Source: an uncultured Gammaproteobacteria bacterium (GTDB lineage Bacteria > Patescibacteriota > Patescibacteriia > Magasanikbacterales > UBA922). Taken from it: a stretch of 64,000 bases of DNA. Positions 121-61,833 of this stretch are shown here, in pieces; within the stretch, counting starts at the first letter, position 1; each line of letters begins with the position of its first letter. The notes beneath the pieces were generated by a model, which was not told where the DNA came from, searched no databases, and saw only the letters and a program-made list of their open reading frames with translations. The stretch is taken from contig CAZFTR010000002.1 in assembly GCA_964522405.1 (NCBI GenBank), positions 72,032 to 136,031 on the forward strand. The letters are read 5' to 3'. The position numbers were made by a program, and so were the translations under genes.

Positions 121-1260
121 ATGAGGATTTTAAGCATGTCTACCATAGAGGCGCTCTTACACGCAGAAGATCAAAGAAAAAATTTACTGGAACGATCAGA
201 AACAATCAATTCTGTAAAAGATGTTTGCATTATTGGTGGTGGGGGATACCTAGGTACGGTTTTAGCAGAAAAACTTTTAGCGCTGGGTTACAATGTAAAG
301 ATTTTTGATTGTTTTGTTTTTGGAAAAGAGGCAGTAGAAAAATTAAAAAAAGCAGTATTAGGAAAGGAAGAATTTGGTAAATTGGATATTTATGAAGGTG
401 ATATGAGAAGTACCTCTGATCTGGTAAATGTTCTAGAGGGAGCTGATGCCGCTGTACTACTCGGTGCCGTAGTTGGAGATCCGGCTTCAACAAAATACCC
501 AATATCAACTTTTGAAGTAAACTATCTTGCTGCTCAAACTATTGCAGAGATTTGCGCTTATCTAAATATAAATCGTTTTATTTTTGCTTCAACTTGTTCT
601 GTCTATGGTCATAGCGAAACAAATTCGGCGTTGGATGAAAGCGCAAAATTAAATCCGGTTTCTCACTATGCACGCACCAAGATAAATGCTGAAAAAGCAG
701 TATTAAGACTTGATTCTTCCAATTTTGCGCCAACAATTTTGCGTATGTCTACTCTCTATGGTCCGTCCTTTAGAATGAGATATGATCTAGTAGTTAATAC
801 TATGATGATGAGAGGAATAGCTAATAAGAAAATAACAGTTTTTGGAGGAAAACAATGGAGACCGCTCTTGTCAGTAGATGATGCTGCCGAAGCTTATGTT
901 TCAGTTATAAAAGCAGATATTGGTAAGGTCAAAAGACAGGTTTTCAATGTTGGTGATGAGAGAGAAAATTATCAAATAATTGATCTTGGAAAAATGATTG
1001 GAAAATTTCTCAAAGACAAGGGAAGAGAAATTGAAGTTGAAATAGTGGAGCATGATGTTGATGAAAGAGATTACAAGGTTTCATTTGAAAAGATTAAATC
1101 AGAGCTCGGTTATAGTGTGAAAGATTCTGTTGAAGACACCTTGGAAGAATTGTATCAGAGGGTAATGGATCAATTTGAAAAAGACCTGATTTCTGATGCT
1201 TCAAATTACAATGTTCAGAATGAATTTAAGACTGATGTCAGAGGGGGATTTTTAGAATAA
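121..1260 (+). CDS. NAD-dependent epimerase/dehydratase (SDR family, nucleotide-sugar modifying)
   Basis: Rossmann motif GGGGYLGTVLAEKLL and a YxxxK-type SDR fold. It is the first gene of the glycan cluster. Confidence 0.8.
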   Translation: MRILSMSTIEALLHAEDQRKNLLERSETINSVKDVCIIGGGGYLGTVLAEKLLALGYNVKIFDCFVFGKEAVEKLKKAVLGKEEFGKLDIYEGDMRSTSDLVNVLEGADAAVLLGAVVGDPASTKYPISTFEVNYLAAQTIAEICAYLNINRFIFASTCSVYGHSETNSALDESAKLNPVSHYARTKINAEKAVLRLDSSNFAPTILRMSTLYGPSFRMRYDLVVNTMMMRGIANKKITVFGGKQWRPLLSVDDAAEAYVSVIKADIGKVKRQVFNVGDERENYQIIDLGKMIGKFLKDKGREIEVEIVEHDVDERDYKVSFEKIKSELGYSVKDSVEDTLEELYQRVMDQFEKDLISDASNYNVQNEFKTDVRGGFLE

Positions 1261-1266
1261 TTTTTT

Positions 1267-2196
1267 ATGGATTTCAAAAAAATAATGGTAACCGGAGGTT
1301 CAGGGTTTATAGGTTCGCATCTTGTTGATCTTTTGATTGAAAGGGGATATGAAGTTTATATTTATGATATTGCTGAGCCTCAGTATAAAAATGATTTTAC
1401 TTATATAAAAGGAGATATTCTCGACCTCGACGCTCTTATAAAAGCATCAAAAGAAATGGATGCTATTTATCACCTGGCAGCTGAGGCAAATGTTAATTAT
1501 TATCATCAGGCACCGAGAGAGTCAACTATTCTTAATACTATCGGCACCATAAATGTTCTAGAAGCAGCTCGAGAAAACAGTGTAAAAAGAGTTTTGTTTG
1601 CCTCAACAGAATGGGTTTACCAGGGATCAAAAGAATCAGTGGTAGATGAAGAAACTCAGTTATATCCAAATGCGCCAGATCATATCTATACTTCATCAAA
1701 AATTGCTTCAGAATTATATTTGGTAAATTATCAAAAACTCTATGATGTTAATTATACAATTATAAGATTTGGAATTCCTTTTGGAGAGAGAGCCAGACCA
1801 CAGACAGTTACTCCAATTTTTATTTTGAGAGCATTGAAAAATGAACAAATAACTGTTGATGGAGATGAGGGTAATTTTAGACAATTTATTTATATAGATG
1901 ATCTGGTGAGGGGTTGCGCTGATTGTCTTCAAGACTCAGGAAAAAATCAGATTATTAATATCAACGGATCACAGAAGATAAAAATAGTTGATATTATTGA
2001 AAATTTAGAAAAAATCATGGATAGGAAAATTGATTATAAAGTGGATACAGATAGAGCTGGAAACTACAAAGGAAGAATAGTCAAAAGTGAGAAAGCAAAA
2101 GAGCTTCTTGGCTGGTATCCTCAGTTTTCTTATGAAAAAGCTTTAAATAAATACTATAATTGGTATTTGGAAAATGTTTGGCAAAAGAATAATTAA
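1267..2196 (+). CDS. NAD-dependent epimerase/dehydratase (UDP-glucose 4-epimerase-like)
   Basis: GGSGFIGSHLVDLL Rossmann motif at the N-terminus. It is tightly spaced after the previous gene. Confidence 0.8.
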   Translation: MDFKKIMVTGGSGFIGSHLVDLLIERGYEVYIYDIAEPQYKNDFTYIKGDILDLDALIKASKEMDAIYHLAAEANVNYYHQAPRESTILNTIGTINVLEAARENSVKRVLFASTEWVYQGSKESVVDEETQLYPNAPDHIYTSSKIASELYLVNYQKLYDVNYTIIRFGIPFGERARPQTVTPIFILRALKNEQITVDGDEGNFRQFIYIDDLVRGCADCLQDSGKNQIININGSQKIKIVDIIENLEKIMDRKIDYKVDTDRAGNYKGRIVKSEKAKELLGWYPQFSYEKALNKYYNWYLENVWQKNN

Positions 2197-13918: not shown

Positions 13919-16024
13919 ATGCGGATAACCCAGAATTTTAAATTAGTTTTAGTATTGATCGTTTTTTCTGCTTTTGCTGGTATTTCTCCAGTTTTAGCTA
14001 AAAAAAGTAATGATCCATTTGTAGAGCAGTGGTCTTACGAGAGAATCGGATTATATAATGCTTGGGATTATGCTACTGGTTCACATGACGTTATAGTGGC
14101 GGTTTTGGATAATGGTTTTGATTCATTTCATCCAGATTTGCGTAACAATGTTTGGAAAAATGAAGATGAAATTCCAAGTAATGGAGTTGATGATGATAAA
14201 AATGGTTATATAGACGATGTCTGGGGTTGGAATTTCCATGAAGCAGATTTCAATAAAAATGGTGTACTTGAGGACAGTGAAACTAGGGGTAATAATAATC
14301 CTCGCCCAGATGTTTCAGATTTGACTGAAAAAGAAAAAGAAGATGGTGTATTTAATCATGGGACACTTGTTGCCGGAATAATAGGCGCTCAAGGAAATAA
14401 TGGTAGAGACGGCGCAGGCGTGAATTGGAATGTGAGATTGATGAATTTAAAAGTTTTAGGAAATAAAGGAATTGGAAGTTTGAGACCCATGTCTGAAGCA
14501 GTATACTATGCAGTTGATAATGGAGCTGATGTTATAAACATTAGTATGGTTGGTACTGAAAATGGAGATAGATTGATGGAAGCTCTAACTTATGCTTTTG
14601 AAAATGGTGTGGTAGTTGTGGCTGCTGCAGGAAATGATCTGGTAGTCCTCAATGACAATCCTCTTTATCCGATTTGTAGTGATGCAGAAATTGATGAAGA
14701 GAGAGTGTTGGGGGTAAGTGCCATAGACGAGGAGAGAAGAATTGCTCGATTTTCAAATACCGGATCAGATTGTGTTGATATTGCAGCTCCTGGTGTTGAC
14801 ATTGCTTCAACAGTTAGATTTTCTCCGACAAATGGCTTGTCTGATACTTACCTTTCTGGATATAAAGGAACTTCATTTGCAGCTCCATTTATAAGCGGTG
14901 CCGCTGCACTTATTAAGAGTGTTAGACCTGATTGGGGTGCAGTAGAAATCTTTGATGCCATACTTAAGACTGTGATGCATACTCCTGGACAAGATGAGGT
15001 TGTATATGCAAATTTATTTGGTGCAGGCCTGATTCAGATCGACAAAGCGTTGGCATATGCAATTGCACAAAAAACAGAACAAAAAATAACAGAAGTTGAA
15101 AAAAAGACAGATCAAGTAGAGTCAAAACAAGAAATGCCAGCTTCTAAGCTTGTTGCGTCTGAAAAAAAAGTTTTGTTTTACAAAAAAAGCAGTGGGGAAG
15201 TTAGTGTTTTAAATTTAAGTACCAGAGAGTCAGAAAGATATTTTAGAGGTGGTTTCAAGAGTATTGATGATTTGGCTGTTTACCAAGAAGGTGGAAAAAT
15301 GCGCTATGTTATTGCCAGAAAAAAAACAGATAAATTACGAGAAATAAAAGTATACAATGAAAGATGGATAAGTCTAGCCAGTTGGACAGTTCCGGCCAGT
15401 GGTGAGTTAAATTTGGCTATTGGTAATTTTTCTGATCAGCCTGGAATGGAAATAGTGTTGGCACCAAACTACTCTGATGATCAGATTTTTAGAATTTTTA
15501 GTTTCAAAGGAGAGTTTATAGCTGAATATAGTTTAAGTGGTATTCATGGTGGTGTGGACATAGCCATCAATACTTCTAAAGTTGGTTTTGATCAGATTTT
15601 GACTCTGTACAAGTTTAATTCTACGGTTTTTGTAGAGAGATTTGATAGTTTTGGAGATTCTTTTGGGCGAAATTCTGTAAATTCATTAGTTGAAGGAGGT
15701 TCAATAAGTGTGGGAGATTTAGATGGAGATTCAGAAAATGAAATTGCTCTAGTGTCAGGATCTGGAAAGAACAGCAGTATTTTTTACTATGAATTAGATG
15801 GGGGTTTGTTGAGAAATTTTTATGGCTATGATTATAGTTTTACAGGCGGTATAAATGTAAATGTGTTTAACTATAATTCTGATTTAAAAGATGAAGCGAT
15901 TATAACTTCCATGGATGGTACTCGTCCGGTATCAGTTTGGTCAAATCACAGTAGACGTTTGGCTAAGTTTTATCCTTTTGGAGAGGATAACCAAGAAGAA
16001 TTCGAAGTCGTGCCACTTTGGTAA
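13919..16024 (+). CDS. secreted S8 family serine peptidase (subtilisin-like) with C-terminal repeat/beta-propeller-like region
   Basis: Signal peptide, D-H-S triad context (VAVLDNGFD, HGTLVAG, GTSFAAPFISGAAAL) and a thermitase-like Ca-binding DDDKNGYIDD loop. Confidence 0.8.
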   Translation: MRITQNFKLVLVLIVFSAFAGISPVLAKKSNDPFVEQWSYERIGLYNAWDYATGSHDVIVAVLDNGFDSFHPDLRNNVWKNEDEIPSNGVDDDKNGYIDDVWGWNFHEADFNKNGVLEDSETRGNNNPRPDVSDLTEKEKEDGVFNHGTLVAGIIGAQGNNGRDGAGVNWNVRLMNLKVLGNKGIGSLRPMSEAVYYAVDNGADVINISMVGTENGDRLMEALTYAFENGVVVVAAAGNDLVVLNDNPLYPICSDAEIDEERVLGVSAIDEERRIARFSNTGSDCVDIAAPGVDIASTVRFSPTNGLSDTYLSGYKGTSFAAPFISGAAALIKSVRPDWGAVEIFDAILKTVMHTPGQDEVVYANLFGAGLIQIDKALAYAIAQKTEQKITEVEKKTDQVESKQEMPASKLVASEKKVLFYKKSSGEVSVLNLSTRESERYFRGGFKSIDDLAVYQEGGKMRYVIARKKTDKLREIKVYNERWISLASWTVPASGELNLAIGNFSDQPGMEIVLAPNYSDDQIFRIFSFKGEFIAEYSLSGIHGGVDIAINTSKVGFDQILTLYKFNSTVFVERFDSFGDSFGRNSVNSLVEGGSISVGDLDGDSENEIALVSGSGKNSSIFYYELDGGLLRNFYGYDYSFTGGINVNVFNYNSDLKDEAIITSMDGTRPVSVWSNHSRRLAKFYPFGEDNQEEFEVVPLW

Positions 16025-16056
16025 AAACAGTAAACAGTAGTGACTGGTAAAATTTG

Positions 16057-16106
16057 TCATCTCGAGCGGAATTTTCTGAAAGAAAAATGGAGTCGAGAGA
16101 TCCCTT
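16057..16106. repeat. partial (left-arm only) copy of the inverted-repeat element found at 59989-60143
   Basis: About 45 of 50 nt identical to the left arm of the 59989 element (gtcatc[t/c]cgagcgga[a/g]ttttctgaaagaaaaatg...gatccct). No matching right arm lies downstream. Confidence 0.5.
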
Positions 16107-16233
16107 GTTTTCAGTAAGTCGTCTAATAGGAATAATAAGTTCAATCACTGGTCATTATTATTTATTATTTACTGCTTGCTGTTTTCAATGTATAATATCA
16201 GCATCAAAGAAAATTATCATATAAAAAAATCAT

Positions 16234-59300: not shown

Positions 59301-59987
59301 ATGGATAGTGTTGAGGTAAGAAAATTTATAGAAAATTCTTTAAAAAATCATCTCTCAGAAGAAGATATTTATGCTGATTTGATTAAAAAAGGTTTAAAGA
59401 TAAAAGAAATAAAAGATCTTTTGGAAAACGCTAGGACAGAAAAAAATCAAGATCAAACAGAAAAAAGAACTATAAAAGTAGTTCTAACTATAGGGGCTGT
59501 TCTTGTTGGTGCTGGGGTTTTTTCTCTAATTGCTTCAAATTGGGAGGATATGGCAAAAGCTTGGAAAGTTTTTGTTATAGTTTTTTCTATGTTACTTTCA
59601 TATTTTGCAGCATGGTATTTTTCCCAGAAAAAGGGCTACGAGAAAACTGGTTCAGCTTTGTATCTTCTGGGAATTTTGATTTATGGCGCTGGAATTTTCC
59701 TAATTGCTCAGATTTTTAATATTAGTGCTAATTGGCCGGATGGTTTTATTCTTTGGATGTTTGGAAGTTTGACTCTTTATTTTGCTGTGAAGAATAAAAT
59801 CTTCCTCTATTTGTCATTTGTACTTGGCCTTTTTTCTATTTTTGGACATCCGGCAGCTGTTTTTGATGTTTTTCATGTTCATGATCGGTTTTTGTTAACT
59901 TCTTCTGTATTTTTGCTACTTGCTGCTGTGGTTTGTTTTGTAGTGGCGAGTATTGTTGAAAAAAAGAATTTTAAAATTGATACTTAG
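59301..59987 (+). CDS. DUF2157-like membrane protein
   Basis: Soluble N-terminal helical region followed by several TM helices. It is first in a triad with the DUF4401-like and GDYXXLXY genes. Family name from memory. Confidence 0.45.
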   Translation: MDSVEVRKFIENSLKNHLSEEDIYADLIKKGLKIKEIKDLLENARTEKNQDQTEKRTIKVVLTIGAVLVGAGVFSLIASNWEDMAKAWKVFVIVFSMLLSYFAAWYFSQKKGYEKTGSALYLLGILIYGAGIFLIAQIFNISANWPDGFILWMFGSLTLYFAVKNKIFLYLSFVLGLFSIFGHPAAVFDVFHVHDRFLLTSSVFLLLAAVVCFVVASIVEKKNFKIDT

Positions 59988-59988
59988 T

Positions 59989-60143
59989 GTCATCCCGAGC
60001 GGAGTTTTCTGAAAGAAAAATGAAGCCGAGGGATCCCTGTCTATGTAGTAGAAAGAGTGGATTAAAAGTGTTGCATTCTACTGTATAGACAGGGATCCCT
60101 CGGCTACGTCCCTTACTTCGTAGAGACTCCGCTCGGGATGAAA
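59989..60143. repeat. 155-bp element with 16-bp perfect terminal inverted repeats and a nested internal palindrome; MITE-like or structured RNA
   Basis: Outer IR TCATCCCGAGCGGAGT pairs with ACTCCGCTCGGGATGA. An inner stem of about 27 bp pairs AGCCGAGGGATCCCTGTCTATGTAGTAGAA with TTCTACTGTATAGACAGGGATCCCTCGGCT. A partial copy lies at 16057-16106. Confidence 0.55.
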
Positions 60144-60164
60144 ATTTCTATTAACTAACATAAT

Positions 60165-61205
60165 ATGTTCGGAATAGTAGCAGTATTTATAACCACTTTT
60201 TTTCTGGCCTTGTTTTTATTCAAAGCAGGTTCTTTTTTCTTTTCAAAGACTAAACATGAAAATCTGCAATTTTTTGATTCTAAAAAGTCCCTGATTGCTG
60301 AGAGCTTTTTTGCTTTTTTCATTTTGTTTCTGACCATAAGTTTAGTCGGATTTAACCATGACTTTGGTGGTTTTTTTGAATGGTATACAGTTATTTTGCT
60401 GTGTTCTGTGTTGGGTTTTTTCTTGGCTTACAGAAAAAACTTGGTTTTACTTTTGTTTTTAGCAGTTTCAGGATTAATTGCCTGGTGGGTGGGATTGATG
60501 TTGGATTTTTCAGATATATACAATATTAGTCCTGTTTCAGCAAGCTCAGGCATAATGATACTTGGTATAGGTCTTTATTCCTTTGGAAGATTGTTGGATA
60601 GTGAGAAAAATCAGAAAAGATTTGCCTTGATTTATAAGTTTTTTGGTATTCTTACTACAACTTCAGTTTTATTTGCTTTTTCTTCCAAACAAGCACTTAA
60701 AATGTTAAATAATACTGTTGTTGAATATTCTGCTTATCATCATTGGCAGATTTTCTTTTTTGTATTATTTTTTCTTTTTGCATTGGCCATGATTTTTTGG
60801 ACAAAGAAAAACCAGACAATAGCAATTTGGGAGTTTACAGGTTCACTTTTTTTGATTTCTCTGTTTGCTTTGATTAGCTATTTTCCATTTCCACAATTAT
60901 TCTCAGGTTTATATTTAGCAGATCTTTCAACTTCAGGATTAGTTTGGGCTGTTGTCTTGAACTTAACACTTTTTTTCTATCTTTTTGGCTTTATTATGCT
61001 GGGATACCAGAGAAAAGAGGAGACCTTGATAAATTTTGGAAGCTTTTTCTTATTTGTTTTTATTTTGGTAAAATACTTTGATTGGTTTTTTAGTTTTATG
61101 GACAAAAGTGTATTTTTTATCGGAGCAGGGTTTTTGATGTTTGTAGTTGGTTGGTTTATGGAGCGCAGTAGAAAATTTCTCATAAACGAAATTGAAACTA
61201 AGTAA
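60165..61205 (+). CDS. DUF4401-like polytopic membrane protein
   Basis: 346 aa with at least 10 TM helices, placed between the DUF2157-like and GDYXXLXY genes. Family name from memory. Confidence 0.45.
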   Translation: MFGIVAVFITTFFLALFLFKAGSFFFSKTKHENLQFFDSKKSLIAESFFAFFILFLTISLVGFNHDFGGFFEWYTVILLCSVLGFFLAYRKNLVLLLFLAVSGLIAWWVGLMLDFSDIYNISPVSASSGIMILGIGLYSFGRLLDSEKNQKRFALIYKFFGILTTTSVLFAFSSKQALKMLNNTVVEYSAYHHWQIFFFVLFFLFALAMIFWTKKNQTIAIWEFTGSLFLISLFALISYFPFPQLFSGLYLADLSTSGLVWAVVLNLTLFFYLFGFIMLGYQRKEETLINFGSFFLFVFILVKYFDWFFSFMDKSVFFIGAGFLMFVVGWFMERSRKFLINEIETK

Positions 61206-61833
61206 TATGAAATTAAACAAAACTCAAAAAATTTTAGTGGCAGTTTTGGTACAAGTTTTGATACTGGGATTTTTATTATTGTCAAAATATTTTTTGTTCG
61301 CAAATGGAACAGAAATAATCTTGAGAATTTATCCGATCGATCCAACAGATCCTCTGAGAGGGGACTATATAACTTTTGAATACGATATTTCAGAGATTTA
61401 TGATTATAATCAAGGAGTAGTAAATGAGGGTGATACAGTGTATATTCCTATCAATAAAACAGGTAAATATTGGTACGCCAGAAACGAGATAATCCTAAAG
61501 GAAAAACCAGAAACAGGCTTATTTATAAAGGGTGTGGTAGAAGAAGTAGATAAAAGAGGTGGTTTCGAAGAGCCAATACCTCTTCCTCCTCCACCAAAAG
61601 AATCAAGAGAAGATATGGTTGTTGAAGTGGGTCCAGAAATGGATGAAGAGCTTGGCTATTATGTAGAAAATCTAGTTCAGATAAAGTATGGAATCGAAGA
61701 ATATTTTATCCCAGAAGGCGTGGGAAGAGATTTTGATTTTAGTTCAAAAGATATTTCTGCCAAAGTTGTTATAGATAGTAATGGCGAAGCAATGCTTAAA
61801 CAAGTATTTATAGATAATCAACCTTGGCCATAG
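61192..61833 (+). CDS. GDYXXLXY domain protein
   Basis: N-terminal TM helix followed by the GDYITFEY motif, which matches the GDYXXLXY family signature. Confidence 0.6.
   Translation: MKLSNMKLNKTQKILVAVLVQVLILGFLLLSKYFLFANGTEIILRIYPIDPTDPLRGDYITFEYDISEIYDYNQGVVNEGDTVYIPINKTGKYWYARNEIILKEKPETGLFIKGVVEEVDKRGGFEEPIPLPPPPKESREDMVVEVGPEMDEELGYYVENLVQIKYGIEEYFIPEGVGRDFDFSSKDISAKVVIDSNGEAMLKQVFIDNQPWP

Follow-up and report, generated by a model that had tools for sequence, protein, structure and literature searches.

A gene-less inverted pair and a solo copy of probable Ssn-related motifs in a low-G+C, probably patescibacterial genome

The 155-bp palindromic element at 59989-60142 of the window (the whole stretch of DNA analysed, 64,000 nucleotides long) is best explained as a gene-less inverted pair of Ssn-related motifs (SRM), and the related copy at 16056 as a solo SRM. 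The repeating entity is an oriented unit of about 47 nt, GTCATCCCGAGCGGAGT followed by a variable loop insert and CGAGGGATC, and the 155-bp element consists of two such units, U1 and U2, on opposite strands with their GTCAT ends facing outward; the solo copy is a third unit, U3. The unit plan (GTC, then AT-CCC...GGG-AT, then C), taken together with the homology of the partner proteins to the nuclease SsnA, leads to the reading of all three as SRM recognised by SsnA-family GIY-YIG nucleases, with a probability of roughly 0.8.

The Ssn system was described by Chenal et al. (Nat Commun 2025; PMC11893778), whose SsnA from Neisseria meningitidis is a 94-aa single-domain GIY-YIG protein (cd10448). 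Its target, the hairpin repeat NTS (CGTCATTCCCGCGMAVGCGGGAATCYRG), is bound as ssDNA only, not as dsDNA or RNA, and the cut falls upstream of this repeat at a distance of a few nucleotides; cutting requires the three bases that precede the palindrome, binding requires the C that follows, and the loop may be changed, removed, replaced or extended (PMC11893778). The ssnA gene usually has its own repeats on either side, generalised under the name Ssn-related motifs, and the authors note both the IS-like NTS-ssnA-NTS layout and a parallel to REP/RAYT (PMC11893778). In Neisseria the system reduces transformation by NTS-containing DNA; ssDNA binding and cutting by the cognate Ssn is known for Neisseria and Wolbachia pairs only, Rickettsia is among the SRM-rich genera, and 29% of ssnA homologs are reported without SRM (PMC11893778).

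An earlier note on this DNA, made from the sequence alone, had described nested inverted repeats, a long hairpin and a partial second copy near 16 kb, and once repeats, fold and second copy were recomputed the observation as a whole was borne out. The outer inverted repeats are indeed 16 nt long and perfect (TCATCCCGAGCGGAGT at 59990-60005 on the plus and 60126-60141 on the minus strand), and the near-perfect inner palindrome is recovered as two 30-nt arms that are 93% complementary. Folded as RNA, 59985-60150 reaches -92.5 kcal/mol (z = -12.8 against shuffles), which confirms the expected stability. The recurrence at about 90% identity also holds: 16055-16105 matches the 60-kb element at 46 of 51 positions (90.2%, E = 2e-12 in a within-window search), and it includes a third copy of TCATCCCGAGCGGAGT with 2 mismatches at 16057-16072. 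The spacer between the arms is mostly a palindromic extension of them (CCTGTCTATGTAGTAGAA / TTCTACTGTATAGACAGG) around a 22-nt loop, and it occupies the place that the ssnA gene has in gene-bearing cassettes (Table 1).

Table 1. Positions of the units in the window, of associated features and of two gene-bearing cassettes at other loci.
Feature	Position	Strand	Composition	5' end	Stem triplets	Loop insert
U1, left arm	59989-60035	+	GTCATCCCGAGCGGAGT + loop insert tttctgaaagaaaaatgaagc + CGAGGGATC	GTCAT	CCC/GGG	starts tttctgaaagaaaaatgaa
Central spacer between U1 and U2	60036-60093	.	inverted repeat 60024-60053 / 60076-60105			
U2, right arm	60094-60142	-	TTCATCCCGAGCGGAGT + loop insert ctctacgaagtaagggacgtag + CCGAGGGATC	TTCAT	CCC/GGG	starts ctctacgaagtaagggacgta
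U3, complete solo unit	16056-16102	+	GTCATCTCGAGCGGAAT + loop insert tttctgaaagaaaaatggagt + CGAGAGATC	GTCAT	CTC/GAG	that of U1, one base different
Possible larger element around U3 (~160 nt)	16024-16185	.	16-nt inverted repeat, 88%			
Gene-bearing cassette	L030 558-1025					
Gene-bearing cassette	L069 4813-5264					

Two parts of the earlier description give way at the level of the units. The right arm does not simply mirror the left: the two differ at the start of the loop insert and in the first base (TTCAT against GTCAT). Nor is the 16-kb copy a decayed half: U3 is a complete unit with both halves, and relative to U1 both sides of its stem have changed, CCC/GGG to CTC/GAG, which is a compensatory change. 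In U1 the stem is ATCCC/GGGAT with GTC on its 5' side and C on its 3' side, and the predicted ssDNA fold adds an inner hairpin, TTTTCT/AGAAAA. U1 and U3 carry GTCAT directly before the ATCYC stem, in keeping with the GTC(A/T)Y that SRM have just 5' of their palindrome, and a C follows the stem directly in all three units (GGGAT-C or GAGAT-C). U2 is the exception at its first base, a T in place of the near-invariant G that is found in 89 of the 91 units not selected by the scan pattern. U1 and U3, at sites 44 kb apart, share a lineage-specific loop insert, and the unit has therefore been copied within this genome or lineage.

Both sites are intergenic, as are all three units, in DNA of 36% G+C. 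Pfam places Peptidase_S8 and an NAD-dependent epimerase beside the 16-kb site, and DUF2157 and GDYXXLXY beside the 60-kb site, in agreement with the DUF2157-like and S8 protease genes named in the earlier note. The DUF2157 stop codon occupies 59985-59987, so that the GTCAT at 59989 starts 2 nt later, just as had been noted; the further statement that both copies abut stop codons is right for this one and wrong for the other, which begins 31 nt downstream of the S8 stop (ending at 16024). Three same-strand genes fill 59301-61833 (DUF2157, an unassigned 346-aa membrane protein and GDYXXLXY), and the pair sits in the 177-nt gap between the first two. Named relatives of the DUF2157 protein are mostly from Patescibacteria metagenome-assembled genomes (MAGs), at no more than 51% identity, and by such sequence comparison the host is probably a candidate-phyla-radiation (Patescibacteria) genome. 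A Leptospira origin, suggested by base composition, was set aside in view of these relatives. Around U3 a further inverted repeat is seen (AAAACAGTAAACAGTA / TACTGCTTGCTGTTTT; 16024-16039 / 16170-16185; 16 nt, 88%), the first arm of which starts on the final base of the S8 stop codon. The two arms may mark the ends of a larger element, about 160 nt long, or may be due to chance, and given the AT-rich sequence their significance is uncertain. The sole other assembly of the 60-kb locus, the 1.4-kb unitig L121 from Logan SRR8146441, stops at its base 1439, which is window position 60034 and falls inside the element (...GCCGAGGGAT). The assembly graph was probably broken there by the GGGATCCC palindrome or by some repeat.

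The core of the unit is shared across many phyla. A scan with the pattern GTCATCYCGAGCGGART over one genome per species (596 Gb) yields at least 120 loci, and the matches listed come from Acidobacteriota, Verrucomicrobiota, Bacteroidota, Chloroflexota, Gemmatimonadota, Patescibacteria, Marinimicrobia, Clostridia and others. Among these matches, chance-like ones aside, the unit follows the grammar GTCATCCCGAGCGGAGT, 0-65 nt, then CGAGGGATC (in degenerate form GTCATYYYGAGCG...GARRRAYC), and in many units the 0-65 nt insert forms a small hairpin with a CGGAGT direct repeat on each side. By our own estimate, chance alone would produce several hundred matches to a degenerate 17-mer in a search space of 596 Gb, and roughly one match in four does look like such an occurrence, lying inside coding sequence. 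The second half, however, occurs far above chance frequency with its complementary triplet: GAGRG is found within 90 nt of 95 of the 125 pattern matches listed. Where a second half was found, units with 5' CCC have GAGGG in 87 of 87 cases and units with 5' CTC have GAGAG in 8 of 9. Over distinct units from the at least 120 loci, the YYY/RRR stem triplets are complementary in 132 and not in 12, with seven pair types. This covariation, together with the compensatory change between U1 and U3, indicates that the stem is under selection. In units outside the window, A[T/C]C comes after the stem in 141 of 183. As ssDNA, single units take up the expected stem and inner hairpin, but at -5 to -7 kcal/mol this fold is weak and no more stable than those of shuffles, compared with -8.9 kcal/mol (z = -4.3) for the Neisseria NTS.

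The wider collection contains several further arrangements. A scan of JGI metagenomes for sibling units with the AT-rich loop start returned one distant low-G+C contig only. Eleven contigs of the viral collection IMG/VR (L149-L159) match the 17-mer, about seven of them with the full two-part unit, so that predicted viral or prophage DNA is among the carriers of these units. Part-unit tandem repeats ("stutters", made of the 5' half only) and arrays of whole units are seen at L074 916-995 (a 21-nt period of the 5' half, repeated 4 times), L028 4009-4133, L108 5188-5223, L114 ~420-455, L100 934-1082 (a whole-unit array with a 66-nt period) and L118 6206-6368; a copying process appears to act on part-units. 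The Chthoniobacter MAG JANPHH01 (L014, L039, L043, L046, L047 and L053) holds at least seven copies of one inverted pair of about 130 nt, made of two different unit types, in which similarity stops 2-3 nt outside GTCAT and which, as in a bidirectional terminator, is preceded by an A-run and followed by a T-run. At L124 (JGI Ga0180732_1014597) an inverted pair at 1135-1307 lies inside a 422-aa MnmA-like ORF (472-1740, minus strand) and is translated in frame, giving the peptide ...CHFDRSERGTSKRSGEI...VARDDK....

Which protein goes with these units? Clustering the ORFs of the at least 120 motif-selected loci leaves one small recurrent family near them, a GIY-YIG protein of about 100 aa (PF01541). 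Inverted units bracket its gene at L030, L069 (twice) and L006, and a gene remnant at L008. Approached from the protein side, the family comprises at least 7,998 clusters in the protein collection, of which four members were looked up: the genes of P0206, P0140 and P0185 have inverted GTCAT units on both sides, and the fourth, P0121, also flanked, is the same locus as one of the L069 copies. A homolog on a Planktothrix plasmid is likewise flanked on both sides, which brings the distinct loci with inverted units around a GIY-YIG gene of about 100 aa to nine. The P0206 loci also hold gene-less pairs like that of the window, adjoining ssnA in L135. By sequence comparison these partners are homologous to a Neisseria gene that lies among canonical NTS repeats: the L069 protein has one match in N. 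gonorrhoeae (46% identity, E = 8e-18), a 95-aa ORF among seven such repeats, which in turn matches the L030 protein (43% identity, E = 3e-26). An outward-facing NTS pair with a spacer of about 50 nt is present at the Neisseria locus as well (L122 480-587). The assignment of the partners is by PF01541 and by identity to the Neisseria gene, their membership in cd10448 being putative. NCBIfam holds no model for them, and a PDB sequence search finds no solved SsnA, only weak matches to UPF0213 proteins.

Some observations on these loci stand apart. GIY-YIG genes at L023 and L113 were considered as flanked partners and not counted, being UPF0213-like and 500-900 nt from the unit. On Planktothrix agardhii plasmid p1 (L123; NZ_LR882964.1 18147-19819) the ssnA-like gene, flanked by GTCATTCTGAG-type units, lies between an MmeI-type restriction-modification gene and the DISARM gene drmA, a defence-island context. 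Two PLSDB entries, NZ_CP119142.1 and NZ_CP119140.1, are 2.17-Mb N. gonorrhoeae chromosomes filed as plasmids, and these exposed the ssnA locus.

Set against the Neisseria system, the window variant has the same plan in several respects. It is oriented, begins with (H)GTCAT, continues with a CCC...GGG-type palindrome and ends in C; its units are intergenic and repeated, with free loop content; inverted units bracket a single-domain GIY-YIG gene of about 95-115 aa whose product is 43-46% identical to that of Neisseria; and outward-facing pairs with a spacer of about 50 nt occur in both. By analogy, the loop tolerance seen in Neisseria fits the variable inserts of the window-type units. Unlike NTS, whose stem has 8 bp, the variant has a stem of 5 bp that encloses a conserved 12-nt GAGCGGAGTCGA, often split by the hairpin insert with CGGAGT repeats, and its host here is low in G+C and probably a member of Patescibacteria. 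It also lies outside the published SRM search sequence, HGTCWYN(0-2)YYVSBRHN(0-5)WNVSBRGN(0-2)RNCYNB, a working pattern of its authors and not a functional criterion: the pattern matches the NTS control but no unit of the window and 0 of 121 units of the window's variant. As a text string in the literature the motif returns unrelated primer matches only. A further difference from ssnA-bearing loci is that tblastn and a profile search find no GIY-YIG gene, and hence no ssnA, within the 64-kb window.

If the window units behave as SRM do in Neisseria, a unit would fold whenever its DNA becomes single-stranded during replication, repair or DNA uptake. The ATCYC/GRGAT stem would close a loop with room for one more small hairpin, GTC (5' of the stem) and C (3' of it) would stay unpaired, and an SsnA-type nuclease encoded elsewhere in the genome would bind this fold and nick the strand a few nucleotides 5' of the motif. 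On this model the genome would encode an Ssn, and all three window sites would be cut by it. Several points weigh against the SRM reading: the mismatch with the published search pattern, the weak fold of single units, the lack of a GIY-YIG gene in the 64-kb window, the one distant sibling in the JGI metagenomes, and the missing first G of U2, an arm which, if the Neisseria rules apply, may bind but be cut poorly. In the paired arrangement the long inter-arm hairpin would, as modelled, compete with the folds of the single units.

Other kinds of repeat resemble the window element in part. Its layout is that of Neisseria dRS3 repeats and NIMEs, in which short spacers are bounded by inverted dRS3/NTS hairpin repeats (PMC11893778), in that the 155-bp element is a spacer between inverted hairpin repeats; it differs in repeat sequence and host, and whereas NIME spacers are families of RS elements, no family was found for the window spacer. 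The pair inside the MnmA-like ORF of L124 recalls, in its layout, the Rickettsia palindromic elements. These are palindromic repeats that can lie in frame inside protein-coding genes, unlike the window copies, which are intergenic.

The stability of the pair and the position of both sites downstream of stop codons of same-strand genes would suit a role in RNA, and a structured 3'-UTR or terminator was one of two readings in the earlier note: a hairpin at the 3' end of the DUF2157 and S8 mRNAs would block 3' exonucleases or terminate transcription, as REP elements do. Across the matches listed, solo units are sense in 22 cases and antisense in 12, intergenic units lie between convergent genes in 37 cases and divergent ones in 13, and the A-runs and T-runs around the Chthoniobacter pairs look like bidirectional terminators. 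However, this orientation bias is mild, derives from crude ORF calls and leaves both orientations represented, the solo unit is a weak hairpin, and no T-run follows either window hairpin; a scan for intrinsic terminators (a G+C-rich hairpin plus T-run) found none overlapping either element. Over the window and 18 related loci only tRNAs pass the Rfam gathering threshold, and the sub-threshold matches are to miRNA models, of the kind that hairpins in general give. An origin of the core from a hammerhead, a twister or a tRNA-like RNA was also considered and, for want of any match, dropped. The unpaired bases are strictly conserved across phyla of 36-70% G+C, which suggests that a protein partner reads the sequence, and the partner characterised in Neisseria binds no RNA (PMC11893778). 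An RNA role as the main explanation is therefore unlikely, and the terminator reading is not supported; a secondary effect at the RNA level is possible, because units favour gene 3' ends and A- and T-runs accompany them in one MAG.

The second reading in the earlier note, a MITE-like element, fares better in its architecture than in its mechanism. In the classical form, a DDE transposase would act on the 16-17 bp termini of an IS deletion derivative, with the 16-kb copy as a solo end. The perfect 16-nt terminal inverted repeats, the size of about 155 bp, the related copy elsewhere in the window and the MAG with at least seven copies of one pair type all agree with this, and the gene-less inverted pair of units that elsewhere bracket a nuclease gene is IS-like. 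Yet the flanks, TTAGT and AAATT, contain no direct repeats and hence no target-site duplication, the supposed solo end pairs within itself and shows a compensatory change in that pairing, and the sole gene found between such ends is the GIY-YIG ssDNA nuclease of about 100 aa, never a transposase. The ends are moreover identical over 26 nt across a dozen phyla, a constancy that is not usual for IS termini. A classical MITE is thus very improbable, and so, to the same degree, is a REP doublet (REPIN) mobilised by RAYT, an IS200-like Y1 HUH transposase. REP and REPIN elements reportedly go together with RAYT transposases, and the window-type units are like them in forming solo units or inverted doublets with long hairpins, all intergenic, with no target-site duplication, as in IS200/IS605-type chemistry; the single-copy nuclease gene is itself flanked by repeats, too. 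The partner is a GIY-YIG nuclease and not a Y1 HUH transposase, only GIY-YIG recurs beside the units in the ORF clustering, and the core is common to many phyla, whereas REP sequences are species-specific. Finally, coincidence, both for the palindrome in its AT-rich intergenic setting and for the partial match at 16 kb, could appeal to the chance-like share of the scan matches, but it is hardly credible: shuffles of the window match TCATCCCGAGCGGAGT 0.07 times on average and none of 100 reaches the three observed, so that, as the earlier note had judged from the long match at 16 kb, coincidence is a poor account.

With the window units read as SRM, the pair has the terminus layout of SRM-ssnA-SRM without the gene, which makes it either what a deletion has left behind or a non-autonomous derivative of REPIN or MITE type. 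Could such pairs move? Inverted SRM pairs might be mobile elements without autonomy of their own, which an SsnA-type GIY-YIG nuclease, working in trans on ssDNA, would move; this is a tentative and rather doubtful idea, and the window pair itself may be or have been mobile. The lineage-specific unit at two sites, the repeated pair of the Chthoniobacter MAG, the in-frame pair in the MnmA-like ORF and the gene-less pairs adjoining ssnA genes are compatible with mobility and do not prove it. If the idea were true, SRM-ssnA-SRM would constitute a new class of prokaryotic transposon, based on GIY-YIG and not on DDE, HUH or serine/tyrosine enzymes, and its near-identical 26-nt ends would have spread through upwards of a dozen phyla, reaching even the reduced genomes of Patescibacteria.

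Assigning the palindrome to the Ssn system described in 2025 means that no new RNA or transposon class is needed to account for it. What is new is modest: by the criterion of the published search pattern, a widespread SRM variant of the form GTCATCCCGAGCGGAGT + optional hairpin + CGAGGGATC, a loop that carries inserts, and the occurrence of such units in reduced genomes. The published pattern thus misses a very widespread variant that brackets ssnA homologs in Acidobacteriota, Clostridia, Cyanobacteria and others, and that occurs in candidate-phyla-radiation genomes. Ssn nucleases are under development as sequence-specific ssDNA cutters, for which the variant would, by analogy, offer a distinct recognition site with a loop that naturally accepts inserts of 0-65 nt, and its organisation into solo units and doublets provides concrete test cases for the mobility of Ssn cassettes.
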